This document shows positions 6,878 through 30,838 of a stretch of 32,000 nt of DNA, in pieces. Both the position numbers and the translations under genes were made by a program. How positions within the stretch are numbered: the first letter of the stretch is position 1; every line of letters starts with the position of its first letter. The notes under the pieces are model-generated. The model did not search any database. It was not told where the DNA came from and saw only the letters and a program-made list of their open reading frames with translations. Origin of the DNA: Gemmata obscuriglobus (lineage in GTDB: Bacteria > Planctomycetota > Planctomycetia > Gemmatales > Gemmataceae); NCBI RefSeq assembly GCF_008065095.1, contig NZ_CP042911.1:6900001-6932000 (forward strand). The letters run 5' to 3'.

Positions 6878-9800
6878 ATGGAATCGCGCGACATCATCGT
6901 TCTTTCTCCTTCGGGTGCCGCCGATCCGTCGCTCGCTATCGCCGCCTGCCGGGCGGGCGCGTGCGGGGTGCTGGATCTCGAGTTCGCCACCCGCGCCGCG
7001 GCCGAGCCGGCACTGGCCAAACTGGCAAAGTTCGCAACCGGGTTCGGCGTCCAGCTCCGTGCCGACGCCGCCGACCTGTTCGACCTCGTGGCCGGGTTCA
7101 AGCCCGCGGTGGTGATCCTGGCCGGCGCGGACTCGCCCGCGCTCATTTCCCGCATCAACGACCTGAAGCGACAAAATGTGGCGGTCCTGCGCGAGGCGGT
7201 CAGCGTCGCGGAAGCCGCGCGCGCGGTCGAACTCGGCGCGGCGGGCGTCGTGCTGAAGGGCCACGAGGCCGGCGGGCGGGTCGGCGCGGACACGTCGTTC
7301 GTGCTGATCCAGAAGTGGCGGCACCGGTCCGAGAAGAGCGGCACCGATATCCCGTTCTGGGTGCGCGGCGGGGCCGGCACGCACACGGCGGCGGCGTGCC
7401 TCGCCGGCGGCGCGCGGGGGCTGGTTCTCGACTCGCAGGTCCTGCTCACGCGCGAATCGGCCGTGTCGGACGGGCTCCGCAAACGCATCGGCGGGCTGGA
7501 CGGGGGCGAGGCCCTCGTGCTCGGGTCGCGGCTCGGCGAGGCGTACCGGATTTACGCCCGCCCGGACTGCGCCGGCGCACAGGAGCTGGCGAAGGACGAC
7601 GAGCGGCTTCAGCACGCCGCGCTTTCGGCCGAAGAGAAGCTGACCGCGTGGCGCGACGCGGTTCGCGCCCGGGTCGCGGCCGATCCGGCGGACGGCGTGT
7701 GGCTGGTCGGGCAGGACGTCGTGACCGCGGCGCCGCTGGCGGCGAAGGGCGTGACCGTCGCCGGTGTGGTGCAGCTCCTGTGCGAGCGCGCCGGTAAGGC
7801 GCTGGAATCGGCGAAGCGGCTGGGGCACCTGCGGCCCGACGCGCCGCTCGCGAAGGCGCACGGGACGAAGTACCCGATCCTGCAAGGCCCGATGACCCGC
7901 GTCAGCGACACCGCCGCGTTCGCCGCGAGCGTCGCGGGCGGCGGGGCGCTGCCGTTCCTCGCCCTGGCCCTTCTCCGCAAGGCAGAAACCGAAAAGCTCC
8001 TCGCGGAAACGAAGGCGAAGCTCGGCAACCGGCCGTGGGGCGTCGGCATCCTCGGGTTCGCCCCGAACGAGATCCGGGCCGAGCAGCTCGAAGCGATCCG
8101 CGCGTACAAGCCGCCGTTCGCGATCATCGCGGGCGGGCGCCCGGACCAGGCGCGTCAGCTCGAAGCGATGGGCACGCCGACGTACCTGCACGTGCCGGCG
8201 CCCGGCCTGCTGAAGATGTTCCTCAAGGACGGCGCGAAGCGGTTCATCTTCGAGGGGCAGGAGTGCGGCGGGCACATCGGCCCGCGGACCAGTTTCGCGC
8301 TTTGGGAGGCGATGGTCGAGGTGCTGCTGGAGCACATCGGGATGCGCCCGGCCGACGACCTGCACGTCGTATTCGCCGGCGGCATCCACGACGCGCGCTC
8401 GGCGAGCATGGTGGCCGCGCTGAGCGCACCGCTGGCCGAGAAGGGCGTGAAGGTCGGGGTGCTGCTCGGCACCGCGTACCTGTTCACCGAGGAGGCCGTG
8501 AAGGGCGGGGCGATCACCGCGCGGTTTCAAAAGGAAGCGCTCGCGTGCGGCGACACGGTGCTGCTGGAGACCGGCCCGGGGCACGCGATCCGCTGCATCC
8601 CGACGCCCTATGCCGACACATTCGAGGTCGAAAAGCGCAAGCTCCGCGCCGAGGGCAAATCGCCGCTGGAGGTGGGAATCGCGCTGGAGCGGATGAACCT
8701 CGGGCGGCTGCGGGTGGCGAGCAAGGGCGTGGACCGCGCCGCGTCGGTCAACGGCAACGGCAGCGGGCTCGCGGACGTGAGCGGGGACGACCAGTTCCAG
8801 CGCGGCATGTACATGATCGGCCAGGTGGCCGCGCTGTGGGACCGCGTCACCACCATCCCCGAGCTGCACGCGAACGTCTGCGACAGCGTCGTCCTCCCGG
8901 AGTCGGCGCTGAGTTCCCTCCACATCGAGCCCGAAGCGCCCCCGCCGTGCGACGTCGCGATCGTCGGGCTGTCGTGCTTCTACCCCGGCTCCACGTCGCT
9001 GTGGGGGTACTGGGAGAACATCCTCGCGAAGACCAACGCGGTCATCGAGATCCCGCCGAGTCACTGGGACTGGCGCCCGTACTACGACCCGGACCCCCGC
9101 GCCCGCGACAAGATGGTGTCGAAGTGGGGCGGGTTCATGTCGGACATCACGTTCGACCCGCTCAAGTACGGCATCACGCCGAAGAGCATCCCGAACATCG
9201 AGCCGCTCCAGCTCCTGCTGCTCGAAGCGGTCAACCAGGCGCTGGGCGACGCCGGCTACCTGGAGCGGCCGTTCAGCCGCGAGCGAACGTGCGCGATCCT
9301 GGGCGTGGGCGGCGGCGGGATGCCGCTGTCGGTGGCCTACGGGTTCCGCGCCTGTATGCCGCTGCTCGACTCGATCCCCGGCGTGCCGGTGAAGTCGCAG
9401 CAGATCGTCGACCTGGGCGAGGGAATGCTCCCCGAGTGGACCGAGGACTCGTTCCCGGGCATCCTGCTGAACGTCGCCGCGGGCCGGGTCGCGAACCGGT
9501 TCAACCTGGGCGGCCCGAACATGGCGATCGACGCCGCGTGCGGCTCGTCGCTGGCCGCGCTCTACGCCGGGGTGCGCGAGCTTCAGGACAACACCAGCGA
9601 TGTCGCCATCGTGATGGGCGGCGACGCGGTCCAGACCCCCTACGCCTACGTCGCGTTCTCCAAGACGCACGCGCTCAGCCCGAAGGGCCGGTGCCGCCCG
9701 TTCGACGCCGACGCCGACGGCATCGCGCTGGCCGAAGGGGTCGGCGTCGCGGTGCTGAAGCGGCTCGCGGACGCGGAGCGCGACGGCGACCGGATTTACG

Positions 9801-12800
9801 CGGTCATCAAGGGCGTGGGCGCGTCCAGCGACGGCCGCGACAAGGGGCTGACCGCGCCGCGGGCCGAGGGGCAACTGCGGGCGCTGCACCGGGCGTACGC
9901 GCAGGCCCGGGTGAACCCCTCCAAGGTCGCGCTCGTCGAGGCGCACGGCACCGGGACAGTGGTGGGCGACCAGACCGAAGCCCGCGCGATCGGCCAACTG
10001 ATGCGCGACGCCGGCGGGGCCGCGCAGACGTGCGCGATCGGCTCCGTGAAGTCGATGATCGGGCACAGCAAGTGCGCCGCCGGGCTCGCGGGGCTCATCA
10101 AGACCGCGTTCGCCCTGCACCACAAGGTGCTGCCGCCGACGCAGGTGGAGAAGCCGAACCCGAAGGCGAACCTGGACGGCGGGCCGCTGTACCTGAACAC
10201 CGAGGCGAAGCCGTGGGTCCACGGCGCCGATCACCCGCGCACCGCCGGGGTCAGCGCGTTCGGGTTCGGCGGCACCAACTTCCACACGGTGCTCGAGGAG
10301 TACACCGGCGACTTCCTGAACCGCCCCGAAACCGGGCTGCGGCAGTGGCCGGCGGAACTGTTCGTGTGGCGCCGCGCGGACAAGGCCGCGGTCCTCGATT
10401 CGGTCAAGAAGGTGCGCGACGCCCTGGCCGCCGGGGCACAACCGACGCCGGCCGATCTCGCGGCCAGCGTGTGGCACAGCAGCAAGTCGGCCGCCGCGGG
10501 CGCTCCGGTGCTGGCGGTGGTCGCGACCTCGCTCGCGGACCTGAAGGACAAGCTCGGCACCGCCCTGGAGGCGCTGCCGAAGGCGACCGACGCCCACACC
10601 GACCCGCGCGGCGTGTACTTCTCCGCGAAACCGGCCGCGGGCAAGGTCGCGTTCCTGTTCCCGGGCCAGGGGTCGCAGTACCCCGACATGCTCGCGCAGG
10701 TGGCGATGGCGTTCGGCGAGGTGCGCGAGGTGCTCGACCGCGCCGAGGGGACGCTCGCGGGCGACCTCGACCGGCCGCTCGGCAAGCTGATCTACCCGCC
10801 GTCGCCGTTCACCCCCGAGCAGGACGCCGCGAACCGCGACGCGCTCCGGCGCACCGAGGTCGCGCAGTCCAGCATTGGGGCGACGAGCCTCGGCATGTAC
10901 CGGCTGCTGTCGGCGCTGGGCGTCGAAGCCGACATGTTCGCCGGGCACAGCTACGGCGAGTACACCGCGCTCGCGGCGGCGGGCGCGCTGCCCGAAGACG
11001 ACCTGATGCGGCTGTCGTTCAAGCGGGGCCGCGCGATCCGCGAGGCCGCCGCGACGGCGCCCGGCGGGATGATCGCCGCGGACACCACCGCCGAGGCCAT
11101 CGAGCCGGTGCTGAAGGGCCTGCCCGAGGTCTGGATCGCGAACCACAACTCGCCCACCCAGACGGTGATCGCGGGCACCGAAGCCGGCGTGAAGCGTGCC
11201 GCCGAGAAGCTCCAGGCGGCCGGCATCCGGTCGCAGCGGATCGCGGTGGCGTGCGGGTTCCACTCGCCGCTGATCGCCGGCGCGAAGCCGCCGCTCGCGG
11301 AGGCGCTTGGGCAGGCCAAGTTCGGTGCGCCGAAGAAGCCGGTGTTCTCGAACACCAGCGCCGCCCCGCACCCCGCCGACGGGGCCGCGATCGCCGCGCA
11401 GCTCGCGGAGCACCTGGTTTCCCCGGTGCGGTTCGCGGACGAAGTGCGGGCCATGCACGCGGCCGGCGCGCGGGTGTTCGTGGAGGTCGGCCCGCAGGCG
11501 GTGCTCACGGGCCTCACGGGCCAGATCCTCGCCGGCAAGCCGCACGTCGCGCTCGCGACGGACGCGAAGTCGCGCCCGGGGCTGGTGCAACTGGCCCACG
11601 TCCTCGGCCAACTGCTGACGGCCGGCGTGGGCGCGAACCTCGACCGGCTGTTCGTGGGCCGTGCGGTTCAGCCGTTCGACCTCGCGAAGCTCAGCGCCGA
11701 CACCGGCAAGCCGAAGCACCCGGCCACCGCGTGGGTGGTGAACGGGGTGCGCAGCCGGCCGATCAACGGGCCGGAGCCGCGGCTGCTGGGCCAGGCCTTG
11801 CCCGCGGGTGCGGCCGCCGCTGCTGCGGCCAAACCTGCCCCCGCGGCTGCACAATCGGCGCCCGCGCCTGCTCCTTCCGTGCCGGCCGCTCCTGCCCACG
11901 GGGCACCTCGTGGGTCGGCTGAAACCAAGGCGGCGAAAAGCACTCCGCCCGCGCCGCAAGTGAACGCGCCTGCGCGTTCCCCGGTGCAAACGACTTCTGC
12001 GCCTGCGGCCGCTCCGGTTCGCGGGGCTCCGGCCCCCCGCTCGCCCGGAACTGCCGCACCCTTTCCCTCTACCGCTGCCGTCACCACGCCCTCACGAGCG
12101 ATGATGCACAACACCGATACACCGCCCGCCCTCCCCGTTCCGTCGGCGAACGGGAACGGCTACGCGCACGCCAGCACCCCGGCGCCGGACGGCGCGGCCG
12201 CCGTGATGATGCACTTCCAGGATGTGATGGCCAAGTTCCTGGACACGCAGAAGTCGGTGATGCTCGGGTTCCTCGGCGCGCCCGCGGCAGCCCCGGCCCC
12301 GGCCGCGCCGGCGAACGGGCACGCGACCTACGCCGCGGTGCCGTACACCAACGGCCACGCGTACACGAACGGTAACGGTAACGGCAACGGTCACGCATAC
12401 ACGAACGGCAACGGTCACGCGGCCACCGCCCCGCGGCCGGTGGCGGCCCCGGTCAACCGCGTCGCGCCGCAAACGGTCGCCCGACCGGCAGCACCGGTCG
12501 TTGCTCCGGCTGCGCCCGCCAACGGGCGCAACGGGAAGCACGAGACGAACGGGGCGCACGCTCCCACCCCGGCTCCGGCCCCCGCTCCCACTCCCGCCCC
12601 GGTCGTGGTTGCGGAAGTGGTCGCGAAGAAGCCCGGTCAGGTTCTGGACCGGGACGCGCTGCTCGCCCAACTCCTCGAACTCGTCAGCGAACGCACCGGA
12701 TACCCGAAGGAAGCGCTCAGCATCGACCTCGACCTTGAGGCCGACCTGGGGGTCGATTCGATCAAGCGCGTGGAAGTGCTCGGCGCCCTCGCCGAGAGCA

Positions 12801-14659
12801 TTGAGGCCGGCGCCGACGGCAAGCAGCCGAACCTCGAAATGGAAAAGCTCAGCGTCATCAAGACGCTGCGCGGGATCGCGGACTACGTGATGGGCGCGCT
12901 GAACGAGGCGGCCCCCGCGGCGGCTCCTTCTACGAACGGCAAGCACGAACCGGCGGCGCTGCCGGCCGCGCCCGCGGCGGGCACGAGCGGCGACCTGCAC
13001 CCCGGGGCGCGCCAGGGCGACGTGCAGCGGCTCGTGGTGCGGCTGATCGACGCGCCGCTCCCGATCCGGCCCACGTTCAAGCCGCCGACCGGTGCCATCG
13101 TCATCACCGACGACGGTCAGGGCACCGCGCGGGAGCTGGCCGACCGGCTCGCGGAACTGGACATCAAGACCGCGCTCGTGCGGCACGGCGGCGGGGACGG
13201 GTTCACGGCCGACCTCACCGACCCGGACGAGGTGAGCGACCTGCTCAAGATCCTGCGGTCGAAGGTCGGCCCGGTGTCCGGGCTGATCCACCTGCTCCCG
13301 CTGGCCGAGCCGCCCGCGGGCGAGTCCGCCGAGCAGCGGATGCGGCGCGAGGTGAAGTCGCTGTACCTGCTGGCCCGCGGGCTCGAAGGTGACATCCGCG
13401 AGGCCGGCAAGGGCGGCTCCGCGGTGCTGCTCGCGGTCACCGCGCTGGGCGGCACGATGGGGTACGGGCGCGACCTGCCCGACGACTTCTTCGCGGGGCA
13501 CGGCGGCATCGCCGGGTTCACGAAGTGCCTCGGGTACGAGTGGCCGGAGGTGACCGTTCGCGCGGTCGACGTGAGCGCCGACGCGCCCGCGCCGCGGCTC
13601 GCGGAACAACTGCTCGGCGAACTCGGCGACCCGGACGGACCGTTCGAGGTCGGCCGCGACGGCGAGTTCCGGAAGACGTGGCAGGTCGATCCGGGGCCGC
13701 TCGCCAAAGAGACGGCGGCGATCGAACTCGACGCGAACTCCACCGTTCTCGTGACGGGCGGCGCGCGGGGCATCACCGCGAAGATCGCGCTGGAGATCGC
13801 GACGCGGTACAAGTCGCGCCTGGTGCTGGTCGGCAGCTCGCCGGTGCCGGTCGCGGAGCACCCGGACACGACCCCGCTGACGGCGCCCGCGGACCTGAAG
13901 GCCGCGCTGATGAAGCTCCTTCAGGCCGAAGGGAAGTCGGCCGCGCCCGCGGCGGTCGAGCAGGCGTACAAGCGGCTCCTGAAGGACCGCGAGATCCGGC
14001 AGAACCTGGACGCCATCCGCCACGCCGGGAGCGAGGTCGAGTACCGGTGCGTGGACGTGCGCGACGCCGCGGCGTTCGGCGCGCTCATCGCCGGGCTGAA
14101 CGCGACCACGGGCATCACGGGCGTGATCCACGGCGCCGGGGTGATCGAGGACAAGCTGCTGCGGGACAAGACGCCCGAGTCGTTCGACCGCGTGTTCGGG
14201 ACGAAGGTGGACAGCGCGCTGACGCTGGCCCGCAAGCTGGACCCGGCGAAGCTGAAGTTCTTCGCGCTGTTCGCGTCGATCACGAGCCGGTACGGGAACC
14301 GCGGCCAGTCCGACTACGCCGCGGCCAACGAGGTGCTCAGCAAACTGGCGTGCCAGCTCGACCGCAAGTGGCCGGGGCGGGTGGTGTCGGTGGCGTGGGG
14401 GCCGTGGGCCGAGGTGGGCATGGTGGCGGACCTCGCGAAGCACCTCGTCGCCCGCGGGCTGAAGCTGATCGAGCCGGGCGTGGGGGCCGGGTTCGCGGTC
14501 GACGAGTTCGTGTTCGGGACGAAGGGCGAGCCCGAGGTGCTGGTGGCCGGCGGGACCGAGTCCGCGCCCAAGCCGGCGCGGCCGAGCGCCCCGGGCGAGT
14601 CGTCGCCGGTCCCGACGGGGCCGAACGGCTACCCGATCGCGTCCGGCGCGGGCGGCTGA
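6878..14659 (+). CDS. Multidomain PUFA-synthase-like type I PKS/FAS subunit: NMO/ER-like 1, NMO/ER-like 2 (PfaD-like), KS, AT, Pro/Ala linker, ACP, KR
   Basis: 2593-aa ORF. ER-like 1 has [12 protein letters not shown] (7250-7285) and [24 protein letters not shown]. ER-like 2 has [13 protein letters not shown] (7871-7909) and [11 protein letters not shown] (8249-8281). KS has [13 protein letters not shown] (~8950), [36 protein letters not shown] (Cys codon 9539-9541), EAHGTGT (His 9944-9946) and GHSKCAAG (His 10064-10066). AT has GQGSQ (10664-10678) and GHSYGE (Ser codon 10949-10951). A low-complexity Pro/Ala/Asn-Gly linker spans ~11760-12640. ACP has [10 protein letters not shown] (Ser codon 12758-12760). 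KR has TGGARGIT (13754-13777) and SDYAAAN (Tyr codon 14315-14317). Confidence 0.93.
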   Translation: [2593 protein letters not shown]

Positions 14660-14664
14660 TGTCG

Positions 14665-14779
14665 GCGCCGGGGCGCGGGCCTCTGGCCCGCCGGTAGGAG
14701 TGTGCGGGGCGTCCGCGAAGAGTCGTGTCGCCGCACGGATTCGTTAGCGTCAGCGGGCCAGAGGCCCGCGCTCCGGCGC
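14665..14779. repeat. GC-rich stem-loop: 27-bp inverted repeat (1 mismatch) with a nested small hairpin
   Basis: gcgccggggcgcgggcctctggcccgc (14665-14691) pairs with gcgggccagaggcccgcgctccggcgc (14753-14779). An inner pair is gtgcgg (14702-14707) with ccgcac (14731-14736). The structure starts 6 nt after the PKS1 stop codon. Confidence 0.8.
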
Positions 14780-14794
14780 TGGGACACCGAAAGG

Positions 14795-14962
14795 GGCACA
14801 GGGCTCCCGCCCTGTGCTACGCCCGCCGGCCCCTCCGGGGCGGAAAGACAAGTTCAAAGGCAACAGGATTGCACCTCTTTTGCCTTTGCACTTTCCTCTT
14901 TTGCCTTGGTTTTGCACCCCGGAGGGGTCGTCGGACGTAGCACAGGGTGGGAGCCCTGTGCC
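14795..14962. repeat. MITE-like palindromic element: 46-bp imperfect inverted repeats flanking a 76-nt lower-GC core
   Basis: Left arm 14795-14840 is ggcacagggctcccgccctgtgctacgcccgccggcccctccgggg. The reverse complement of right arm 14917-14962 differs from it at 4 of 46 positions. Each arm contains its own small palindrome (cacaggg...ccctgtg). The core carries repeated ttttgcctt(t/g)g motifs. Confidence 0.8.
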
Positions 14963-14996
14963 GCCGGCGCCCGGCGCTTCTTCAACCTGATCTGGC

Positions 14997-17900
14997 ATGA
15001 CCAACACCCTCACCGACTCGCCGCTCCCCGCCACGCCGCCCGCGACCGGGTGGGATACGGTGCTCTTCGTGCTGCGGGGCGCCGATCGCGCCGAGTTGCG
15101 CGCCCGCGCGCTCGCGCTGGTCGCCGACCTGGAGCGCCGGCCCGACGCCGAACTCGTTCCCCTGGCGGCGGCGCTCGCGGCGGAACTCCAGCCCGGCGGC
15201 GCGCGGCTCGCGGTGGTCGCCGGCTCGCGCGCCGACCTGCTCGCGCGGCTGACCCGCGCCGCGGACCGGCTCGGCGACCCGAAGGTCAAGCAGATCCGCG
15301 ACTCCAACGGGGCCTACTACTTCTCCGAACCGCTCGCGGAGCAGGGCACGGTGGCGCTGCTGTTTCCCGGTGAGGGGGCGCAGTACCTGAACATGCTCGC
15401 CGACCTGTGCGGCGTGTTCCCGGAGGTCGAAGACACGTTCGCGTGGTCCGACCAACTGTCCGCGGAGGCGGGGCGGCCGGAGGCCTCGCTGCGCCGGATG
15501 CTGCACCTCCCACCGAGCGCGACCGCCGAGGAAAAGGCCGCCGCGGAAGCGGAGCTGCGGGGGCTGGGGCCGTCCATCTTCGGCGTGCTGCTCGCGGACC
15601 AGGCCATCTACCGCGTGATCGAGCACCTCAAGGTGCCCGTGGCCGCGATGGCGGGGCACAGCGCCGGGGAGCTCGGCGCGCTGCTGGCGAGCGGGGCAAT
15701 GGACACGCGCGAGTCGCACGGCTCGCGGCTGCCCGACATCATGGAGGTGATGCAGCGCCAGGAGGCCGACGCCGGCGGCCCCGATGTGGCGCTGCTCGCC
15801 GTGGGCGCCAGCAAACAGACCATCACCGAGGTCGCCGAGGCGGTCGCGGGCGGGGCGGTGATCGTCGCGATGGACAACTGCCCGCACCAGTGCGTGGCGG
15901 TCGGGCCGACGCACCTCGTCGCCGCGGTGGAATCGGCGCTGGCGGAAAAGGGCGTGATCGCGGAGCGGCTCCCGTTCAAGCGGCCGTACCACACGCCGCT
16001 GTTCGAGCCGTACATGGGGGCGTTCCGCGAGCTGTTCGCGGCCGTCCCGTTCGGCGGCCAGCACACGCCCATTTACAGTTGCTCGACCGGCGCGCTGTTC
16101 CCTTCGGACCCGGACGCGATGCGGGAACTGGCCGTGAACCACTGGGTTCACCCCGTCGAGTTCACGCGGCTGATCGAGAACATGCACGCCGACGGGGTGA
16201 GACTGTTCGTAGAGTGCGGCCCGCGCGGGAACCTGTCCGCCTTCGTGGAAGACATCCTGCGCGGCAAGCCCTTCGCCGCGATCCCGGCCAACGTCCCCCG
16301 CAAGAGCGGCCCGACGCAGATCAACCACATGGTCGCACAACTCGTGGCACACGGCGTCGAACTCAACTTGGGTCACCTGTTCGGGGCGCGGGACGAAGAC
16401 CCGGCACCCGGTCCCCTCACCGTTCTCGTAGCCCCGGCCAATGGAGCTTCTGTGGGTCAGCGGGAAGGGAGTGGGAGTTCCGCCGACCCGCGCCAATCTC
16501 CGCCGATCGGACCGCCGGGCGAGCGGAGAGGGGCGATGGGTCGGTCCGACTTTGCCGTACACGACTACCTGCGCGTGATGGGGCAGTTCCTCGACACCCA
16601 GCGCGAGGTGATGTCGGCGTTCCTCGGGAGCCCGTTCGTTCCTTCGGCGCCGGCGCCCGCTGCTGATCGGCTCGTTTCGACCGAGCCCTTACCGGCTCTG
16701 GAGCCAGAGGCGCTTCCGCCCTTCTGTCTCGTCGAGACGGTGGTTCATCACGAACCCGGGCGCGAGATCGTGTTCCGGCGCGTTCTGGACGAGCGCGAGG
16801 ACCGGTACGCGTCCGATCACACCTTGGGCGGGCGCGGGGTGAGCCGCGAAGACCCGGGGCAGAACGGGCTGCCCGTGCTGCCCATGACGTTCAGCCTCGA
16901 AGCGATGGCCGAGGCCGCGTCGCTGCTCGTACCGGGCAAAGTGGTGATCGGGCTGCGCAACATCCGGCTGTTCCGGTGGCTCCCGCTCGACCCCGAAACG
17001 ACCACGCTCGAGGTGCGGGCGACGGTCGCCGTGGTCGATCCCGGGACCGGCGCCGTCGAAGTCCGGGCGGACGTGCGCGACCTCGGCAACTCGTTCCTAC
17101 GCGACGGCGCCGGCAAGGCGTCCGCGGAGGCGGTGGTGCTCCTCGCCGACCGCTACCCGGACCCGCCGGCGCCGCTGCCGTTCGAACTGACCGGCGCGGT
17201 GCCGTGCAAGAGCACGGTCGAGGACCTGCGCCGGAACATGTTCCACGGGCCGGTGTTCCAGATGATCCGCACGCTCGACACCACCGGGCGCGAGGGGATC
17301 GAGGGGACGCTGGAGGTGCAGTCGCGGGAAACGTGGTTCCGCTCGAACCCCGACCCGCAGTTCGCCCTCGACCCCGTCCTGATGGATGCGGCGATGCACA
17401 TCCTGGGGGCGTGGCACCTCGAGCAGCCGGACTGGACCGGCCGCATCCTGCTGCCGTTCGAGGTGCAGAAGGTCGAGTACTTCGGCCCGACGCCGCAGGT
17501 CGGCGCGCACGTCCTGGTGCGCGGGCACAACGAGCAGGAGTCGGCCCGGCACTTCCGGCACGGCCTCGAAGTGTTCGACGAGACCGGTAACGTGTGGCTG
17601 CGGCTCACCGGCGCGGGCTACTGGCGGTTCTACCTGCCGTTCGGGCACGTCAACTTCTTCGGGCCGAAGGACGAGTACTACCTGAGCCGCGAGTGGGCGG
17701 AAGCCGCTGCGGGAAATGCGGAATTCGGAACGCGGAATTCGGAACAGAAGACACAAGGCAATTCGACTCCGCACTCCGCATTTGCAAAGTGCTACTTCCT
17801 GGAACCGCCCGCGGACCTGAAGCAGCCGGTGCTGCGTGCCGCCGGGGCGCGCGTGACGATGACGCCGGCCGAACTGGACGTGTTCGGCACCTGGACGGGC

Positions 17901-18383
17901 ACCGACGCCGAACTGAACGACTGGTTCTTCGGGCGGATGCTCGCGAAGGACGCGGTTCGCAGCGCGTGGTCGCAGAAGCACGGCGAAGCGATGTTCCCCG
18001 CCGACATGGAAACGGAAACCGCCGACGGGCGGATCGTGTGTCGGCCGCGCGGCGCTGCCAAGAGTGAGGCGTTCCCGAACGTGGCGGTCGCTGTTGCGGA
18101 CGGGAAGGTGGCGGCGTTCGCGGCGTTCGCCGAGTGGGTCGGGATCGCCCTTCAAACGGTTCCCAAGAACGCGACGCCGGAAGCCGACGCCGAGGCCCGG
18201 AAAGCGGTCGCATGCGGGGCCGTTGCCGACGCCCTGGGCGTTCCGCGCGAGGGCTGCACCCTACAATCACTCGACGCGAACACCGGCGCCGCGCGGGTGA
18301 CCGCGGGCGGGGCCGCGTTCCGCGTTCAGACGGCCCGTAACAAAGACGCGGTCGTCGCGACCACCCTGTGCGAGCCGGCCTGA
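14997..18383 (+). CDS. PKS subunit: PfaB-like acyltransferase, PKS-type double-hotdog dehydratase, and a degenerate PPTase-like C-terminal domain
   Basis: 1128-aa ORF with ATG at 14997. AT motifs are LLFPGEGAQY, GHSAGELG (Ser codon 15660-15662), MDNCPHQCVAVG and RPYHTPLF. DH has the His codon 16818-16820 in SDHTLGG...LPVLPMT and a second hotdog motif DPVLMDAAMH (17370-17399). The tail (~17790-18383) aligns at motif level to Sfp/AcpS-type PPTases (see findings). The stop overlaps the next start as TGATG. Confidence 0.9.
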   Translation: MTNTLTDSPLPATPPATGWDTVLFVLRGADRAELRARALALVADLERRPDAELVPLAAALAAELQPGGARLAVVAGSRADLLARLTRAADRLGDPKVKQIRDSNGAYYFSEPLAEQGTVALLFPGEGAQYLNMLADLCGVFPEVEDTFAWSDQLSAEAGRPEASLRRMLHLPPSATAEEKAAAEAELRGLGPSIFGVLLADQAIYRVIEHLKVPVAAMAGHSAGELGALLASGAMDTRESHGSRLPDIMEVMQRQEADAGGPDVALLAVGASKQTITEVAEAVAGGAVIVAMDNCPHQCVAVGPTHLVAAVESALAEKGVIAERLPFKRPYHTPLFEPYMGAFRELFAAVPFGGQHTPIYSCSTGALFPSDPDAMRELAVNHWVHPVEFTRLIENMHADGVRLFVECGPRGNLSAFVEDILRGKPFAAIPANVPRKSGPTQINHMVAQLVAHGVELNLGHLFGARDEDPAPGPLTVLVAPANGASVGQREGSGSSADPRQSPPIGPPGERRGAMGRSDFAVHDYLRVMGQFLDTQREVMSAFLGSPFVPSAPAPAADRLVSTEPLPALEPEALPPFCLVETVVHHEPGREIVFRRVLDEREDRYASDHTLGGRGVSREDPGQNGLPVLPMTFSLEAMAEAASLLVPGKVVIGLRNIRLFRWLPLDPETTTLEVRATVAVVDPGTGAVEVRADVRDLGNSFLRDGAGKASAEAVVLLADRYPDPPAPLPFELTGAVPCKSTVEDLRRNMFHGPVFQMIRTLDTTGREGIEGTLEVQSRETWFRSNPDPQFALDPVLMDAAMHILGAWHLEQPDWTGRILLPFEVQKVEYFGPTPQVGAHVLVRGHNEQESARHFRHGLEVFDETGNVWLRLTGAGYWRFYLPFGHVNFFGPKDEYYLSREWAEAAAGNAEFGTRNSEQKTQGNSTPHSAFAKCYFLEPPADLKQPVLRAAGARVTMTPAELDVFGTWTGTDAELNDWFFGRMLAKDAVRSAWSQKHGEAMFPADMETETADGRIVCRPRGAAKSEAFPNVAVAVADGKVAAFAAFAEWVGIALQTVPKNATPEADAEARKAVACGAVADALGVPREGCTLQSLDANTGAARVTAGGAAFRVQTARNKDAVVATTLCEPA
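17713..17785. repeat. Small palindromic, tandem-repeat-bearing element lying in frame inside the PKS2 coding sequence
   Basis: A tandem 14-mer gcggaattcggaac occurs twice (17718-17731 and 17732-17745). An imperfect inverted repeat pairs gaaatgcggaattcgga (17713-17729) with tccgcactccgcatttgc (17768-17785). The segment is visibly lower in G+C than the flanks. It encodes the linker GNAEFGTRNSEQKTQGNSTPHSAFAKC between the DH and the C-terminal domain. Confidence 0.7.
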
Positions 18384-18655
18384 TGCGAACTGCCGACGAA
18401 GTCCTCTCCGCGCTGAGCGACGTGGTACGCCAGACGTTCCCCGACCGCGACTTTCCCGACGCGGTCGATGCGTCCACCCGCGCCTTCGGCGATCTGGGGC
18501 TGGCGTCCATCGACCTCGTCGTGCTGGCCGAGCGGCTGGACGCCCACTTCGGGCGCCGCTTGCCCTTCGGATCGTTCCTGAAGGGACTGCGCGACCGGGC
18601 CGCGGACGACCTCGAACTCGGTGATCTCGTCGCCTTCCTGCAACAACACGTCTGA
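18383..18655 (+). CDS. Discrete acyl carrier protein (phosphopantetheine-binding)
   Basis: 90-aa product starting at the ATG at 18383, which overlaps the PKS2 stop (TGATG, implying translational coupling). The carrier-protein motif is FGDLGLASIDLVVLAERL (Ser in LASID). Size is typical for an ACP. The ORF-track start at 18368 is an upstream GTG. Confidence 0.8.
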   Translation: MRTADEVLSALSDVVRQTFPDRDFPDAVDASTRAFGDLGLASIDLVVLAERLDAHFGRRLPFGSFLKGLRDRAADDLELGDLVAFLQQHV

Positions 18656-18682
18656 TACCGGGCGAAGAGGGAGGGAGCAAAG

Positions 18683-18943
18683 GCAACCTACCCCCCGGCC
18701 CCCTCCCTGAAGGGAGGGGGCCGGGCACGATGGTCCCGAAGCAGAAGGAACGCGCCAAACTTCGCGTTCGCCCGTGTCTTCCTCCCCTCACTTCAGGGAG
18801 GGGGGCCGGGGGTGGGTCCGCTCCGCGCCCCCCTCTCGCGCCGGGACCACTCCTCTCGGCGCCACCCCCTCCCTTCCGCCGGCCCACGGAAGCTCCGCTG
18901 ACCGGGCCGGCGAGCACGGTGAGGGAGCCGGGGGGTAGGTTGC
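18683..18943. repeat. MITE-like ~261-bp element bounded by perfect 17-bp inverted repeats, with GGGAGGGGG hairpins inside
   Basis: gcaacctaccccccggc (18683-18699) is the exact reverse complement of gccggggggtaggttgc (18927-18943). gagggagc directly precedes both ends (18671-18678 and 18921-18928). A degenerate second copy of the cccctccct..agggagggggccgg hairpin lies at ~18781-18812. Confidence 0.7.
18695..18724 (+). terminator. Perfect 13-bp stem, 4-nt loop GC hairpin downstream of the ACP gene (terminator-like, no U-tract)
   Basis: ccggccccctccc (18695-18707), loop tgaa, then gggagggggccgg (18712-18724). It lies 40 nt after the ACP stop. There is no following T-run, so it may only be part of the repeat element. 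Confidence 0.35.
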
Positions 18944-19443
18944 TCCGCGGGGCTCGCGCGGGTTACAACCGCACGGCACCACCTCGACTCGGGCCGCGGC
19001 GTGTTCGGCTGCCATCAGGTTAGTATGGTAGCGCGCCGCGTCGCGCGGGCAACGCGACCAATCCCCTCCGGGCAGCGGGCCTTTCCCGCTCGCGATGTGT
19101 AACGGGGGGGTACAGTGGGGCTAGCGGCAATCGACGGGGGCACAACCGGACGTTCGCGGGTACTTTCGCTGCCGATTCGCTACCCGTTCGCTGGCCGATC
19201 GCTACCACCGAACGGCGCCCGCAAAACCCGGATAATGCTCCCCGGTGAACGAGAGACGGTTTCGGATTTGCTCGGAAATTTCGCTGCAAGACAATGGAAA
19301 ATAAGCACTTGCAGCAAGTTTGGATTTGAGAGGTTTTCGCCCCACGGATAGGGAATCGGCGCCGGTGGTTCTTTCAGAAGCCGTTGGAGCTTCCAGAAGT
19401 GCCGCAACAGACCGGATTGGTACCACACCGCACGTGAGCAGTC

Positions 19444-20280
19444 ATGCCCGAAGTCGAAGTTAACGGCACGCGCCTCTTCTACCAGCAGGACGGCACGGGG
19501 CCGGACGTGGTACTCATCCACGCCGTCACCAGCAACCAGGCCGTGTGGGTGCTGAGCGGGTTGCCCGAGGCGCTCGCGACCGAGTACCGCGTCACCACCT
19601 ACGACATGCGCGGCCACGGAGCCAGCGCCCGGCCCGCCACCGGGTACACGTCCGCGGTGATGGTCGAGGACTTCCGCCAGCTCCACGCCGCACTCGGGCT
19701 CAAGCCCGCGGTGCTGGTCGGTCACAGCTTCGGCGGGGTGGTGGCGATGCACGCCGCGGCCGTCGCGCCCGAGTGCGTCGCCGGCGTGGTCCTCTCGGAT
19801 TCGTTCTTCCCGGGGCTGAAGCACGTCGAACCGAACTTCGGAAAGATGAGCATCTGGGTCGATCTGCGCGAGCAGTTCGCCAAGGTGGGCGTCGAACTCG
19901 GCGAGACGGTGGACTTCTCCCGGCTGTTCCGCGAAACCGCCGCCCTGAGTTCCGCGAAGTTGAAGGAGCTGGAAGACATCTTCGGTCCGTTCGGGCGCGG
20001 GTGGCTGCGTCAGCTCCCGAAGCTCGCGGAAACGACGTGCGGCGAAGAGGTGCTGACCGAGGCTGGGCTGACCGCCGACGTTCTGGCCGGCATCCGTAAA
20101 CCGGTGGTCGCTCTGTACGACGAATTCTCCCCCTTCCTTGCAACGTCGCGTTGGCTAGAACAACACCTTTCGGGGTGTACGGCCGAGATCATTCCGGCCG
20201 CGAAGCACCTCGCGATGTTCGATAACACCGCAGGCTTCACCGATGCCGTCCGACGGCATCTGAAACGCCTGAGCCAATGA
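19444..20280 (+). CDS. Alpha/beta-fold hydrolase (candidate thioesterase or lipase-type release enzyme)
   Basis: 278-aa ORF. The oxyanion-region-like segment is VVLIHAVTSN, the nucleophile elbow is GHSFGG, and a C-terminal His lies in AAKHLAMFDN. It is co-directional with the PKS genes. Confidence 0.8.
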   Translation: MPEVEVNGTRLFYQQDGTGPDVVLIHAVTSNQAVWVLSGLPEALATEYRVTTYDMRGHGASARPATGYTSAVMVEDFRQLHAALGLKPAVLVGHSFGGVVAMHAAAVAPECVAGVVLSDSFFPGLKHVEPNFGKMSIWVDLREQFAKVGVELGETVDFSRLFRETAALSSAKLKELEDIFGPFGRGWLRQLPKLAETTCGEEVLTEAGLTADVLAGIRKPVVALYDEFSPFLATSRWLEQHLSGCTAEIIPAAKHLAMFDNTAGFTDAVRRHLKRLSQ

Positions 20281-20327
20281 GATGAACGGAACTCGTTCAA
20301 CAGGGTGGTGGAGCGGCCCCCCTTTTT

Positions 20328-21062
20328 GTGGGCGTAACCAGTTTCGCACTGGGCTGTTTCACAGTATTCGTCGGCCTGTGGGCGGTGGGCACGTTTCGGA
20401 CGGTTGAGCGGGTCGTTGAGGTTGAGCGAGTGGTCGAGGTCGAGCGGGTCGTCGAGAAGTTGGTCGAGCCGCCGCCCAGCCCAAGCTACGCCGATTTAGT
20501 CGTCACGCTCCGAAACGCGCCAATGGTTTTGGACGGTGATTTTGGTAATTACTTTGTGGAGGAAACGCGCAAAATCCCGGGCGTCGCGCAAGTGTCAGAG
20601 GGTGTCGTCGGCTTGGTGCACGAGATGCGCAGCAACGGAAATGTCAATGATACCCCCTTTATGATCCAGGGATGGCAACCGGATAACTTCTGGTACGGCG
20701 ATCTGAAGGTCACTGCCGGTCGGCGGTTGGAAACCAAGGACCGACACAAAGTGCTGTTGGGCCAAAAGTTGGCCGAAAATCTTCGGAAGGAAGTTGGTGA
20801 CAAAGTCGTCTTCGTCGCCGATCCCGAGCAACCGTATGAAGTGGTCGGCATTTGCAACAGCCTGGACCGTTCCGAAAACTACAGCGCAATCGTTTCGCTT
20901 GCCGACGGACAGGCCCTCACGGGCAAGCGTATAACCGGGTTTAGCGTTCGAGTCGCGGCTGGCATGGCCGACATTGACGCCGTGAAGCAAGCGATCGAGG
21001 CGCTCCGTGACCCGCGTGACACGAACGCACGACTTGAGGCCTTCCGTCCCAACCGGCGCTGA
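20328..21062 (+). CDS. Truncated MacB/FtsX-type permease paralogue: one TM helix plus the periplasmic core domain only, no FtsX TM bundle
   Basis: 244-aa ORF with a GTG start. It has an N-terminal hydrophobic helix (SFALGCFTVFVGLWAVG). The rest aligns residue by residue with the periplasmic domain of the next gene (e.g. VSEGVVGLV.. / VSEGVVSTA.., QGWQPDNF / QGWKPDNF, VADPEQPYEVVG / VADPEHPYTVVA, ADGQALTGKRITGFSVRV / ADGQALTGKRVTGFSIRV, LRDPRDTNARLEA / LRDPKDPTARLDA). It stops exactly where TM2 would begin. Confidence 0.65.
   Translation: MGVTSFALGCFTVFVGLWAVGTFRTVERVVEVERVVEVERVVEKLVEPPPSPSYADLVVTLRNAPMVLDGDFGNYFVEETRKIPGVAQVSEGVVGLVHEMRSNGNVNDTPFMIQGWQPDNFWYGDLKVTAGRRLETKDRHKVLLGQKLAENLRKEVGDKVVFVADPEQPYEVVGICNSLDRSENYSAIVSLADGQALTGKRITGFSVRVAAGMADIDAVKQAIEALRDPRDTNARLEAFRPNRR
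20403..20456 (+). repeat. Codon-aligned 18-bp tandem repeat x3 encoding (VERVVE)x3
   Basis: The units are gttgagcgggtcgttgag, gttgagcgagtggtcgag and gtcgagcgggtcgtcgag, followed by a partial unit aagttggtcgag. The single-copy homologous position in the downstream paralogue reads NVERSVESAF. Confidence 0.9.
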
Positions 21063-21104
21063 ACGGCTCGTTACCCCGCGGCATTATCCCACCGGCTTGT
21101 AGGC

Positions 21105-22274
21105 ATGTATTTCGCAGCTTTTATCCTGAAGAACCTCACGCGGCGCCCCGTCCGCACCGCGCTCACGGTGCTCGGGCTGGCGGTCACCGTCGGGAGCATG
21201 ATCGCGCTGCTCGCCGTCAGCCACAACGTCGAGCGGTCGGTGGAGTCGGCGTTCGACACGCGCCGGGTGGACCTCGTCGTGCTCCAGGCGAACAAGCCGC
21301 TGGGGCTCGACAGCGATTTCCGCGAGTACATGGTCGAGCAGGTGCGGTCCTGGACCGACGTGGTGGACCGGGTGTCGGAGGGGGTCGTCAGCACCGCCAA
21401 CACGATCCGCGACAGCGGGTCGGTGAACGAGAACACGTTCTTGGTCCAGGGCTGGAAGCCGGACAACTTCGGGTTCGAGGACATGGCCCTCCTGTCCGGC
21501 GAGATGCTGAAGGCGGAGGACACACACAAGATCATGCTCGGGGAGAAGCGGGCGAGCGCGATGGGCAAAAAGGTCGGCGACACGGTCACTTTCGTGGCCG
21601 ATCCGGAGCACCCGTACACGGTGGTGGCCGTCTACAAAAGCCCCGTGGTCTTTGAAGACGGCGGGGCGATTGTTCCGTTCGCGGACGGTCAGGCGCTGAC
21701 CGGCAAGCGGGTCACCGGGTTCTCGATCCGGGTCAAGCGCGGCACCGCGGACGGGGCGGCCGAGATCGCCGCCGTGCAGCAGCGGGTCGCCGACCTGCGC
21801 GACCCCAAAGACCCCACGGCTCGGCTCGACGCACAACCGCCCGACAAGTACGTTCAGTCGGTTTCGCAGCTCAAGCTGATCAAGGCCGTGTCGTGGCTGG
21901 TGTCCGCGATCGCGTTCGCGGTCGGCACGATCACCATGCTGAACACGATGGCGATGTCGGTGCTGGAGCGCACGCACGAGATCGGCATCCTGCGGGCGGT
22001 CGGCTGGCCCCGGTCCCGGGTCATCCGCATGATTCTGGGTGAGGCCGCCATGATCGCCTTGGGCGCGACCACGGCAGGGCTGCTGATCGCGTTCGTGGGG
22101 ATGCAGTCGCTCACCCTCTCGCCCAAGGTGAACGGGTTCATCGAGCCGGACCTGTCCCTCATGGTGATCCTGGAGGGGGCGGCGATCACCCTCTTGATCG
22201 GGTTAATCGGCGGCGCGTACCCCGCGTACCGGGCGGCCCGGCTCCTGCCGACGGAGGCGCTGCGCCATGACTGA
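21105..22274 (+). CDS. ABC transporter permease, MacB/LolCE/DevC-type (periplasmic core domain plus FtsX domain)
   Basis: 389-aa ORF. The N-terminus FILKNLTRRPVRTALTVLGLAVTVGSMIAL is TM1. A ~210-aa periplasmic domain follows. The C-terminal FtsX-type three-helix bundle includes LNTMAMSVLERTHEIGILRAVGWPRSRV and ...GGAYPAYRAARLLPTEALRHD. Confidence 0.88.
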   Translation: MYFAAFILKNLTRRPVRTALTVLGLAVTVGSMIALLAVSHNVERSVESAFDTRRVDLVVLQANKPLGLDSDFREYMVEQVRSWTDVVDRVSEGVVSTANTIRDSGSVNENTFLVQGWKPDNFGFEDMALLSGEMLKAEDTHKIMLGEKRASAMGKKVGDTVTFVADPEHPYTVVAVYKSPVVFEDGGAIVPFADGQALTGKRVTGFSIRVKRGTADGAAEIAAVQQRVADLRDPKDPTARLDAQPPDKYVQSVSQLKLIKAVSWLVSAIAFAVGTITMLNTMAMSVLERTHEIGILRAVGWPRSRVIRMILGEAAMIALGATTAGLLIAFVGMQSLTLSPKVNGFIEPDLSLMVILEGAAITLLIGLIGGAYPAYRAARLLPTEALRHD

Positions 22275-22989
22275 CCGCCCCGCCGACTACCTACTCTACG
22301 GCGAGCAACTCGCGAAGACGTACCCCGATGGCGACGTGCGCGCGCTGAACGGCGTAACGCTGGGTGTGCGCGCCGGGCAGCACGTGGCGATCACCGGCCC
22401 GTCCGGGTGCGGCAAATCGACGCTCCTGAACCTGCTCGGGGTGCTCGACACGCCCGTCGCGGGGGAGGTGTACTACCGCGGGGAGCCGCTCTCGAAGTGC
22501 CCGAACCTGAACCACTTCCGCGCCCGGCAGATCGGTTTCGTGTTCCAGTCGTTCTTCCTGATCCCGACGCTGACGGCGAAGGAGAACGTGCAGGTGCCGA
22601 TGTTCGAGGGGCCGGCCCTTTCCGCCCGGGCGCGGGCGAAGAAGGCCGAGGAACTGCTCGAACTGGTCGGGATGAGCAAGCGGGCGAACCACCTGCCGGT
22701 TCAGCTCTCGGTGGGCGAGCGGCAGCGGGTGGCGCTGGCCCGGTCCCTGGCGAACGACCCCGCGATACTGCTGGCCGACGAGCCCACCGGTAACCTCGAC
22801 TCCGACAACGCCGTCAAGGTGCTCGACCTGTTCGCGTCGCTCCAGAAGGCGCGCAACCTCGCGCTCCTGGTGGTCACCCACAGCGACGAGGTGGCCCAGC
22901 GGGCCGACCGCGTGATCCGCATGAAAGACGGGCGCGTGGTGAGCGACTCCGCGAACGGCCGCGCCGCGCCGGCCGGCGGGCCGGGCTGA
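22267..22989 (+). CDS. ABC transporter ATP-binding protein, MacB/LolD/DevA-type
   Basis: 240-aa ORF overlapping the permease stop by 8 nt. Motifs: Walker A GPSGCGKST, Q-loop FVFQSF, signature LSVGERQRVALARSL, Walker B ILLADEPTGNLD, H-loop VVTHS. Confidence 0.92.
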   Translation: MTDRPADYLLYGEQLAKTYPDGDVRALNGVTLGVRAGQHVAITGPSGCGKSTLLNLLGVLDTPVAGEVYYRGEPLSKCPNLNHFRARQIGFVFQSFFLIPTLTAKENVQVPMFEGPALSARARAKKAEELLELVGMSKRANHLPVQLSVGERQRVALARSLANDPAILLADEPTGNLDSDNAVKVLDLFASLQKARNLALLVVTHSDEVAQRADRVIRMKDGRVVSDSANGRAAPAGGPG

Positions 22990-23068
22990 CGGCCGGCGCG
23001 GTTCGCCTTGTCCGCTGGCGGTTGTGGGTTTAATCTCCGGGCGCTCGACGGACCCGGAGGTGAGCCCG

Positions 23069-23830: not shown

Positions 23831-23874
23831 CCGCGTGGCCGATCCGTCGGCGGGCGCATAAGTCAGATTCGTCT

Positions 23875-24042: not shown

Positions 24043-24173
24043 TTCACCCGTTCGGTGCCTCGGAACCAGGCGACCGGCCGACAGGCGCTCCGTGCGCGTG
24101 CGCACCCGTTTGTCCGCTTTGGCCCCCTCCGCAGGCACCCGGTTCGCCCGTCCCGGCGAACAAGGAGCCGTGC

Positions 24174-24716: not shown

Positions 24717-24727
24717 CGGAGGCGGTC

Positions 24728-27934: not shown

Positions 27935-28018
27935 TGGGGCCGTTCCGCTGATTGTTCCCGTCCCGGCGGGCGATATACTGATAGTTTGGTACCGTCGCAC
28001 TCCAGGAACCGTTGCTCG

Positions 28019-30835: not shown

Positions 30836-30838
30836 TGT

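Follow-up and report, generated by a model that had tools for sequence, protein, structure and literature searches.

The DNA analysed here is a 32-kb window from Gemmata, the whole stretch, in which the locus studied occupies positions 6878-22989 on the + strand. It carries two giant open reading frames (ORFs) followed by a discrete acyl carrier protein (ACP), an alpha/beta hydrolase and a MacB-type permease and ABC ATPase. The locus belongs among the Pfa-like secondary-lipid synthases, as an uncharacterised variant that is strongly conserved and has an exporter specific to its lineage; it does not represent a new kind of system. Based on its predicted domains, we propose with moderate confidence that it encodes an iterative type I fatty acid synthase/polyketide synthase (FAS/PKS) of the Pfa ("secondary lipid") family that would make a fully reduced very-long-chain product, together with a MacB-type pump. 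A fully reduced chain would be expected because the system has one active ketosynthase (KS), a malonyl acyltransferase (AT), one ACP, and a ketoreductase (KR), dehydratase (DH) and enoyl reductase (ER). It does not appear to be a polyunsaturated fatty acid (PUFA) synthase because there is no chain length factor (CLF), no FabA-type DH/isomerase and no ACP array. The first-pass annotation of this DNA had likewise proposed that an iterative FAS-like enzyme makes a reduced long-chain secondary lipid and not a PUFA, which is reasonable given the domain content confirmed below.

Real genes were picked by codon-position GC together with Pfam and NCBIfam family searches. The GC content of the window is 62-73%, and the two giant ORFs, ACP, hydrolase and MacB-type pair that had been annotated were all recovered at unchanged positions on the + strand. 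Third-position GC (GC3) of these genes is 0.84-0.93, a value typical of real genes. Overlapping ORFs, including 14702-15373 and 18730-19023, were rejected as non-coding from their codon-position GC and the lack of any family match. The genes and domains of the locus are as follows.

6878-14659, + strand: ORF1, 2593 aa
6878-7807, + strand: ER1, FabK/NMO-like domain with 'EAGGRVG' (NMO 36.9 bits)
7823-8797, + strand: ER2, FabK/PfaD-type flavin mononucleotide (FMN) enoyl reductase with 'ECGGHIG' and 'QGPM' (Pfam NMO)
8930-10447, + strand: KS with Cys-His-His triad (DAACGSS, EAHGTGT, IGHSKCAAG; motifs read from the translation)
10625-11677, + strand: AT1, malonyl-type acyltransferase (Acyl_transf_1 6.6e-41; FabD model 3.4e-51)
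12590-12862, + strand: in-line ACP (LGVDSIKRVE; PP-binding 6.7e-5)
12995-14467, + strand: KR, structural and catalytic halves (GGARGIT, YAAAN; KR 3.3e-34, adh_short)
14660-14996, no strand: ORF1-ORF2 spacer with inverted repeats
14997-18383, + strand: ORF2, 1128 aa
14997-16406, + strand: AT2, second acyltransferase (GEGAQ, GHSAGE, PYHT; FabD model 2e-24)
16674-17696, + strand: PKS-type double-hotdog dehydratase (PS-DH 6.6e-16, PKS_DH_N 1.4e-4)
17769-18380, + strand: Sfp-type phosphopantetheinyl transferase (PPTase)-fold domain with divergent motifs (AlphaFold2 and Foldseek)
18383-18655, + strand: discrete ACP, 90 aa
19444-20280, + strand: alpha/beta hydrolase (Abhydrolase_6/_1)
20328-21062, + strand: extra ORF with MacB_PCD only (MacB_PCD 1.1e-13)
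21105-22274, + strand: permease with MacB_PCD and FtsX (Pfam)
22267-22989, + strand: ABC ATPase (ABC_tran 6.6e-34)

Domain content of the synthase

Pfam and NCBIfam place the domains of ORF1 in the order ER1(pseudo)-ER2-KS-AT(malonyl AT, MAT)-Ala/Pro linker-ACP-KR, and the order annotated from motifs agrees with the Pfam matches to NMO in two stretches followed by KS, AT, PP-binding and KR. ORF1 scored 1125.3 bits against the NCBIfam PfaA subfamily model TIGR02813 (best stretch aa 691-1559), above the curated cut-off of 1010.1, which bears out the proposed PfaA-style KS-AT. The KS was matched by ketoacyl-synt (1.4e-60), Ketoacyl-synt_C (5.9e-38) and KAsynt_C_assoc in Pfam, and AT1 holds all malonyl-type motifs (GQGSQ, GHSYGE, an Arg 25 residues past the Ser, and GFHS). 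Only one ketoacyl-synt match was found among all real ORFs of the window, as expected from the claim that the locus has no CLF or second KS. An Ala/Pro-rich linker of ~300 aa precedes the in-line ACP.

The locus has one in-line and one free ACP, as had been read from the sequence. A single PP-binding domain was found in ORF1; a single LGxDS[IL] carrier motif is present in the window and in every full-length orthologue, with the exception of a stray match in the ER1 region of one locus (L027). The free ACP starts at the ATG at 18383, read directly in the sequence, and overlaps the TGA of ORF2 (TGATG; ccggccTGATGcga), so that the annotated TGATG coupling holds; the permease and ATPase genes have overlapping stops and starts as well. 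The free ACP matches PP-binding in Pfam with 19.8 bits, the Ser of its 'DLGxASID' motif is kept in 74 orthologues, and it lies immediately 3' of ORF2 in nearly all loci compared.

Both ER-like domains predicted at the N-terminus of ORF1 are real. The N-terminal 320 aa by themselves exceed the Pfam NMO cut-off (36.9 bits versus 28), and ER1 matches the FabK of T. maritima (5gvh, E 1.7e-12) with an Arg opposite the His of 'ESGGHIG'. ER2 matches the FabK equivalog model (3.3e-33) and FabK structures in the PDB (~8e-15), and its 'ECGGH[IV]G' motif, corresponding to 'ESGGHIG' in FabK, is kept across orthologues. In ER1 the motif reads E[AS]GGR[VI]G in the window and in ~45 orthologues, with Arg where FabK and ER2 have His, and the 'QGPM' motif is missing. 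The His of the FabK 'GGH' motif is the proposed catalytic residue, and because it is replaced by Arg, ER1 is probably a conserved pseudo-enzyme; the annotated duplication stands as two domains, of which the first is probably non-catalytic. Since FabK/PfaD-type reductases function as dimers, ER1 may serve as a structural partner of ER2. ER heterodimers have reportedly been described in thraustochytrids in a 2026 paper.

In ORF2, matches to the FabD model, PS-DH and the Sfp-type fold reproduce the annotated order of AT, DH and PPTase-like domain. AT2 has a weak Acyl_transf_1 match in Pfam and scores only 18.8 bits with the PfaB family in NCBIfam; its PDB relatives are FabD (~6e-21) and PfaB (2e-7). 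Among 30 aligned ORF2 sequences GHSAGE is invariant, while the GEGAQ and PYHT motifs depart from those of AT1 and the similarity to PfaB is faint. From these motifs AT2 is a candidate starter loader or PfaB-like terminal transferase, PfaB being a terminal acyltransferase (PMC12895367). The DH matches PF14765 PS-DH and PF21089 PKS_DH_N only, in agreement with the annotated lack of a FabA-type DH, which was not found elsewhere in the 32-kb window either, and its catalytic residues H608 (HTLGG...P) and D797xxxH801 (DAAMH) are invariant in the 30 sequences. KR, PKS-type DH and FabK/PfaD-type ER were all found, and the full reductive loop proposed for the locus is present.

The C-terminal 204 aa of ORF2 gave no Pfam match at E<=10 (ACPS included) and no sequence match in the PDB. 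An AlphaFold2 model of this region, built with 40 homologues, has a pLDDT of 92.3 and a pTM of 0.88 and consists of two pseudo-symmetric alpha/beta halves. Foldseek matched the model to PcpS (7bcz, 2.5e-6), human AASDHPPT and PptT, with E 2.5e-6 to 1e-4 and probability 1.0, and an AcpS structure matched one half of it. The annotated PPTase-like end is supported by this match to Sfp-type folds but not by a Pfam ACPS match in the protein itself; in more distant ORF2 relatives, for which JGI uses the name 'acyl transferase .../phosphopantetheinyl transferase', the same position does hold a Pfam ACPS match. Invariant charged residues are found in the first half of the domain (D16, E35, K60-D61-xx-R64 and D79), and the second half has 'VGIAL' at the position of the Sfp-type 'GxDxE', with the acidic residues gone. 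The first half aligns to what we take to be the AcpS sequence 'FTxxE...RFAAKEAxxKA', with E replaced by D and K by R. Judging from these residues, activity of this domain is plausible and would be non-canonical.

The hydrolase downstream of the free ACP matches Abhydrolase_6/_1 at ~1e-22, has a conserved GHSFGG motif and His, and is predicted to be cytoplasmic. Its PDB relatives are generic (esterases, haloperoxidases and epoxide hydrolases), and it is a candidate release or transfer enzyme.

Conservation of the operon and its pump

The architecture, presented in the first-pass annotation as a peculiarity of this locus, is instead that of an operon conserved across planctomycetes with relatives in other phyla. 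A search of the protein database gave 690 relatives of ORF2, the best 120 of which are 55-97% identical over their full length. A pattern scan of GTDB with one genome per species found an ORF2 relative in at least 331 species genomes, a lower bound as the scan used two exact peptides. The 80 loci listed come from Gemmataceae, Isosphaeraceae, Pirellulales and Planctomycetales, some evidently mislabelled metagenome-assembled genomes (MAGs) and one Chloroflexia, and within the planctomycetes the operon occurs in Gemmatales, Isosphaerales, Pirellulales and Planctomycetales. Synteny was counted by tblastn with 16 domain or gene queries at loci with enough flanking sequence. Gene order is kept across Planctomycetota: in 47 of 49 loci ORF2 is preceded by ER1-ER2-KS-AT-ACP-KR, and the order PPT-ACP-hydrolase-MacB-ABC follows downstream in 44 of 52. 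The same six genes were identified from called genes and Pfam in Frigoriglobus tundricola (L001), a Gemmataceae isolate (L002) and a metagenome contig (L087).

Protein identity drops smoothly with taxonomic distance, from 97% to ~35%. The closest counterpart, in Gemmata sp./G. algarum JC673 (L003), is 97% identical in ORF2 protein and 96-99% identical in DNA across most of the locus. This pattern looks like that of a vertically inherited core or housekeeping lipid system and not that of a sporadic antibiotic cluster. Full-text literature searches turned up neither a characterisation of the operon nor an assignment of genes to the (omega-1)-hydroxy [(omega-1)OH] acids of planctomycetes; planctomycete genome papers count 'type I PKS' clusters and do not assign their products.

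The permease is related to MacB (~5e-12) and LolC (5e-7) in the PDB and falls below every NCBIfam cut-off. The ATPase, whose start overlaps the permease stop, is closest to the LolD, YbbA, MacB and DevA models, all under their curated cut-offs. Across the permease/ATPase pair, scores were 214.5 bits for LolD (cut-off 307.75), 48.9 for lolCE (362.45), 51 for MacB (966) and 179.1 for the DevA model TIGR02982 (295.8). No DevC model in NCBIfam was matched by the pump genes, and no HlyD/BSH-type (DevB/HgdB) adaptor domain was found, either among the ORFs of the window or among the genes called in L001, L002 and L087. Membership in the DevCA and LolCDE families was rejected on the basis of these cut-offs and the absent partner genes, and the earlier label 'DevCA-like' is an analogy, not a family assignment. 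With MacB/LolCDE type VII pumps the locus shares a four-transmembrane (TM) FtsX-type permease with a periplasmic core domain (PCD) and a separate LolD-like ATPase, but it differs in that all specific models stay under cut-off, the permease gene stands alone, and neither an adaptor nor a LolA-like partner is nearby. The substrates of such pumps, which are lipids, lipoproteins or macrolides, are pulled out of the inner membrane at its outer face. The pump genes are kept in synteny with the synthase in 44 of 52 loci, which argues that they are part of the system; synteny is silent on the substrate.

An extra ORF at 20328-21062, which the first-pass annotation had not listed, encodes one TM segment and a MacB periplasmic core domain only. 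It has a GC3 of 0.69, and its protein is 47% identical to aa 35-248 of the permease. It is carried on a segment of 834 bp (20271-21104) that is missing from G. algarum JC673, and the part of the permease gene coding for the periplasmic domain is only 67-78% identical in nucleotides to that of JC673. Positions 20271-22000 of the window look like a local replacement or recombination tract limited to the periplasmic domain of the pump. A similar PCD-only ORF lies upstream of the permease in one other locus (L012).

The ER1-ER2-KS N-terminus also occurs outside the phylum, with 45-55% identity and a coverage of 95% or more; Actinomycetota, Acidobacteriota, Chloroflexota, Nitrospirota/Nitrospinota and Gemmatimonadota are among the groups that have it. 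Many ORF2 relatives, counted as cluster representatives, are 1500-2000 aa long with an extra domain of ~480 aa ahead of the AT, which in two loci (L085 and L086) is a KS-type domain (KS'). The non-planctomycete cassette has the form [NMO-KS-AT-ACP-KR]+[KS'-AT-DH-PPT]+ACP+(Phosphodiest)+alpha/beta hydrolase and has no MacB pair. The hydrolase comes directly after the ACP in L083, and a Phosphodiest gene stands between them in L085 and L086. Because the hydrolase follows the free ACP in these cassettes too, it is an old part of the cassette, and what marks the planctomycete variant is that KS' was lost and the MacB pump gained.

The cassette of L085 (10001-24767) lies beside radical-SAM, B12-radical-SAM, methyltransferase and short-chain dehydrogenase/reductase (SDR) genes, and that of L086 (1-20220) beside ATP-sulfurylase/APS-kinase, TauE and MFS genes; PEP-CTERM proteins are encoded near the cassettes of L085 (10001-24767), L086 (1-20220) and L083 (10001-23609). 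Such content suggests that the non-planctomycete cassettes make tailored, possibly sulfated or methylated, long-chain lipids. Among the 80 loci listed, a Chloroflexia MAG (L082, 1-16323) is the only one with a non-planctomycete label and clearly different content: it has ER1 (with W for R)-ER2-KS-AT-ACP-KR and AT-DH, no match to the PPTase domain and no MacB pair.

Proposed product and competing readings

Shulse and Allen described 20 types of 'secondary lipid synthase' (PMC3098273), of which planctomycetes account for just two: Type I, the full pfa cluster of Gemmata, and Type J of Planctomyces limnophilus, the latter given as [ER]+[KS-MAT-ACP3-KR] and 'apparently partial' (PMC3098273). The locus shares with Pfa synthases the PfaA-family KS-MAT-ACP-KR, a PfaD/FabK-type FMN ER, the Sfp-type PPTase fold, a second AT (the counterpart of PfaB) and an Ala/Pro-rich ACP linker. 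It differs in that the KS subunit begins with two fused ER copies, the first of them probably inactive, and in having one in-line ACP where Pfa synthases have 3-9. It also lacks a KS-CLF subunit, has a PKS-type DH in place of the FabA-type, has the PPTase fused behind AT-DH, and includes the free ACP, hydrolase and MacB pump in the operon.

We hypothesize the following sequence of steps. The PPTase domain of ORF2, given its fold and invariant residues, would convert the in-line and free ACPs to their holo forms. AT1 would load malonyl and the KS would condense, after which the KR in cis, the DH in trans from ORF2, and ER2 would run the full reductive cycle repeatedly, with ER1 as a non-catalytic partner that may give ER2 a dimer-like environment. 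AT2 and/or the hydrolase would then take the finished chain off the in-line ACP, either passing it to the free ACP or another acceptor or hydrolysing it, and the MacB-type permease/ATPase would draw the lipid out of the cytoplasmic membrane in the direction of the outer envelope. Condensation is predicted from PfaA-family membership and intact motifs, and all other steps from fold, conserved residues or synteny. That the operon has its own PPTase domain and a private ACP, always accompanied by a hydrolase and a pump, suggests that its lipid is set free or handed on at the membrane and then transported outward.

A tentative candidate for this lipid is the group of (omega-1)-hydroxy C28-C35 fatty acids of planctomycetes, which are freed only by acid hydrolysis and have been reported from Gemmatales and Pirellulales (PMC7534041, PMC7397252, PMC6995999). 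F. tundricola, whose genome carries the operon (L001), contains (omega-1)OH-C28:0, 28:1 and 30:1 (PMC7534041 Table 1), and Fimbriiglobus ruber, which has an ORF2 orthologue (P0054), contains (omega-1)OH-C28:0 and C30:1 (PMC7397252 Table 2). Limnoglobus roseus has (omega-1)OH-C28:1 and Telmatocola sphagniphila C30:1 and C32:1 (PMC7397252 Table 2), and Lacipirellula parvula of the Pirellulales has (omega-1)OH C28-C35 (PMC6995999 Table 1). These acids are orphan lipids whose distribution fits that of the operon.

Two known systems bear on this candidate. The heterocyte glycolipid (hgl) island also encodes a Pfa-related iterative PKS beside the ABC transporter HgdBC/DevBCA; it yields C26-C32 chains with a hydroxyl or keto group at a fixed position, and the transporter deposits the lipid outside the cytoplasmic membrane (PMC11804610). 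By analogy with hgl, which we take as a working model for an omega-1 hydroxyl from PKS logic, we speculate that this group could stem from the first elongation round, whose beta-hydroxyl would have escaped dehydration, as we assume for the oxygen functions of heterocyte-glycolipid aglycones. Pfam found no HglC-type KS-CLF-AT, thioester reductase or glycosyltransferase in the window, and the locus further differs from hgl in having no DevB/HgdB-type membrane-fusion gene and an ATPase under the DevA cut-off. The rhizobial AcpXL/FabF-XL/FabZ-XL/LpxXL system shares with the favoured product the class of (omega-1)-hydroxy very-long-chain acids and with the locus a dedicated discrete ACP. Its lipid A acids are 27-OH-C28:0, 25-OH-C26 and 29-OH-C30, and its product strengthens the outer membrane (PMC5613085). 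Unlike the present locus it consists of dissociated type II enzymes with no megasynthase; its LpxXL acyltransferase has no counterpart here, and there is no sequence kinship past generic ACP and KS folds. It is possible, if doubtful, that the operon is a type I, PKS-logic counterpart of the AcpXL/LpxXL lipid A system, with the pump delivering (omega-1)-hydroxy C28-C35 acids to the outer membrane.

Several points weigh against this product and the proposed pathway. For Gemmata obscuriglobus, omega-OH-C24 is reported but (omega-1)OH acids are not (PMC7534041 Table 1), and the window is from Gemmata; this species does not occur among the named matches listed in the searches for the operon. Most reported (omega-1)OH acids are mono-unsaturated or carry a mid-chain cyclopropane, which the gene set leaves unexplained, and the co-occurrence of lipid and operon comes without a negative control. 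No acyltransferase, glycosyltransferase or thioester reductase was found linked to the operon. The pump scores under the cut-off of every specific exporter family and has no adaptor gene, the hydrolase is a generic alpha/beta hydrolase, and the PPTase domain, whose second half has lost the acidic residues typical of Sfp, could serve to dock ACPs without being catalytic.

An unlikely alternative is that the synthase makes a plain saturated very-long-chain acyl group that stays carrier-bound and is passed to a pathway encoded elsewhere, such as a type III PKS for alkylresorcinols or the synthesis of wax, ether or ornithine-type lipids. It would resemble ArsA/ArsD of Azotobacter vinelandii (Type P) feeding ArsB/ArsC, with the free ACP as the shuttle. 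ArsA/ArsD is reported to be a two-protein Pfa-like synthase whose saturated C22-C26 fatty acids are kept ACP-bound on ArsA and go directly to type III PKSs (PMC6274091), and ArsD carries the PPTase function (PMC4824345; Shulse and Allen Type P, PMC3098273). In function, it is the best precedent for a saturated very-long-chain product. The full reductive loop, the free ACP, the second AT and a megasynthase without a release domain would all suit this alternative, and type III PKS genes occur in 70% of planctomycete type strains (PMC10896814). However, neither a type III PKS nor another consumer is found in the window or the conserved neighbourhood, and planctomycete type III PKSs in a heterologous host gave C15/C17 alkylresorcinols from ordinary C16/C18 acyl-CoA (PMC10896814). 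The ars operon reportedly encloses two type III PKS genes and has no ABC pump. The conserved partner here is an ABC exporter, suggesting that the product itself is an envelope lipid. If the product were an ordinary saturated chain for another pathway, the locus would be a routine addition to the types of secondary-lipid synthase.

We consider it quite unlikely that the locus encodes a PKS for a specialised metabolite, such as a reduced polyketide or lipid with bioactivity, with the ABC pair serving secretion or self-resistance. Genome papers do class such loci as 'type I PKS' clusters, and the genes near the L085 and L086 relatives (radical-SAM, methyltransferase, SDR and sulfate activation) suggest tailoring. 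There is also a resemblance to the enediyne PKS (PKSE): minus the ER pair and AT2, ORF1 and ORF2 together give the order KS-AT-ACP-KR-DH-PPTase, including the rare C-terminal integrated PPTase, and ORF2 relatives with an N-terminal KS' are named 'enediyne polyketide synthase' (one relative by NCBI) or 'acyl transferase/phosphopantetheinyl transferase' by NCBI and JGI. PKSE is, however, one polypeptide where the locus has two proteins and an extra AT; it makes a polyene and has no ER, where two ER-type domains are present here; and its partner is a hot-dog thioesterase and not an alpha/beta hydrolase. The top NCBIfam model is PfaA and not an enediyne model. Near-universal, syntenic and apparently vertical conservation in four orders would be unusual for an antibiotic cluster, the planctomycete operon has no tailoring genes, and the expected product of one KS working with a complete KR-DH-ER loop is a plain alkyl chain.

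Finally, a PUFA synthase supplying the polyunsaturated precursor of the planctomycete n-C31:9 alkene is highly improbable and was rejected: the KS-AT is of the PfaA family, n-C31:9 is found in all Gemmataceae and Lacipirellula (PMC7534041, PMC7397252, PMC6995999) and Shulse and Allen tie pfa-like clusters to ole-dependent hydrocarbons (PMC3098273), but the locus has no KS-CLF pair, no FabA-type DH/isomerase, one ACP in place of an array and no ole genes nearby, and the alkene is better explained by the separate canonical Type I pfa cluster of Gemmata obscuriglobus with its pfaBC fusion (PMC3098273).

An operon of synthase plus pump, as favoured here, would be a testable candidate for building and placing a structural envelope lipid in planctomycetes, whose envelopes are unusual and contain bound (omega-1)-hydroxy very-long-chain acids without assigned genes. 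If the link to this product is true, the lipids could become readable from metagenomes. The tandem of ER and putative pseudo-ER fused to the KS, and a PPTase domain with its conserved residues in the 'wrong' half of the pseudo-dimer, would both be useful for understanding and engineering Pfa-like synthases.

Neighbouring genes and intergenic repeats

The remaining features of the window lie on either side of the locus.

126-1283, - strand: no Pfam match (385 aa, GC3 0.84)
1431-5276, - strand: no Pfam match (1281 aa, GC3 0.92)
5452-6537, - strand: S49 (SppA-like) peptidase, divergent from the operon (Peptidase_S49 7e-28)
23024-23830, + strand: KdsB-type cytidylyltransferase
23863-24054, + strand: cobalamin riboswitch (Rfam RF00174, 101 bits)
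25672-26355, + strand: diphthamide-synthase-like gene
26497-28032, - strand: insertion sequence (IS)-type gene (weak UPF0236 match, GC3 0.71)
27911-29653, + strand: CTP synthase (PyrG)
29785-30906, + strand: transposase with Tnp_DNA_bind domain, downstream of pyrG

The products of 1431-5276 and 126-1283 match nothing in Pfam at E<=0.001 despite their coding-type codon GC, and this region is without synteny to the Frigoriglobus or CJuql4 loci. The S49 peptidase gene is kept in 27 of the 47 loci with the full ORF1 architecture, in Gemmatales and Isosphaerales but not in most Pirellulales loci, and is probably outside the system.

GC-rich inverted repeats with arms of 27-65 nt, 78-96% complementary, fill the ORF1-ORF2 and ACP-hydrolase spacers. 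These measure 338 bp and 788 bp (18656-19443), respectively, compared with ~10-150 bp in most other genomes. Within 14660-14996 the long inverted repeats have 65-nt arms that are 83% complementary and 27-nt arms that are 96% complementary. This spacer cannot be aligned with that of JC673 (L003 9670-10000), and palindromes are present in both. The repeats may be strain-specific insertions within the operon resembling repetitive extragenic palindromes (REP) or miniature inverted-repeat transposable elements (MITE).

Downstream of the locus, the KdsB-type CMP-Kdo synthetase gene adjoins the ABC ATPase. This placement is shared only by close relatives within Gemmata (L003, L004 and L008) and is not kept in other families; it is a weak hint of a link to lipopolysaccharide (LPS) and outer-membrane biogenesis. 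The RF00174 riboswitch lies upstream of a DUF6580 gene (ORF frame 23919-24716) and a periplasmic-binding-protein gene (ORF frame 24092-25675); together these probably serve B12 uptake and have no relation to the synthase. The IS-like gene (segment 26472-27935), which separates the diphthamide-synthase-like gene from pyrG, is an insertion with respect to JC673.

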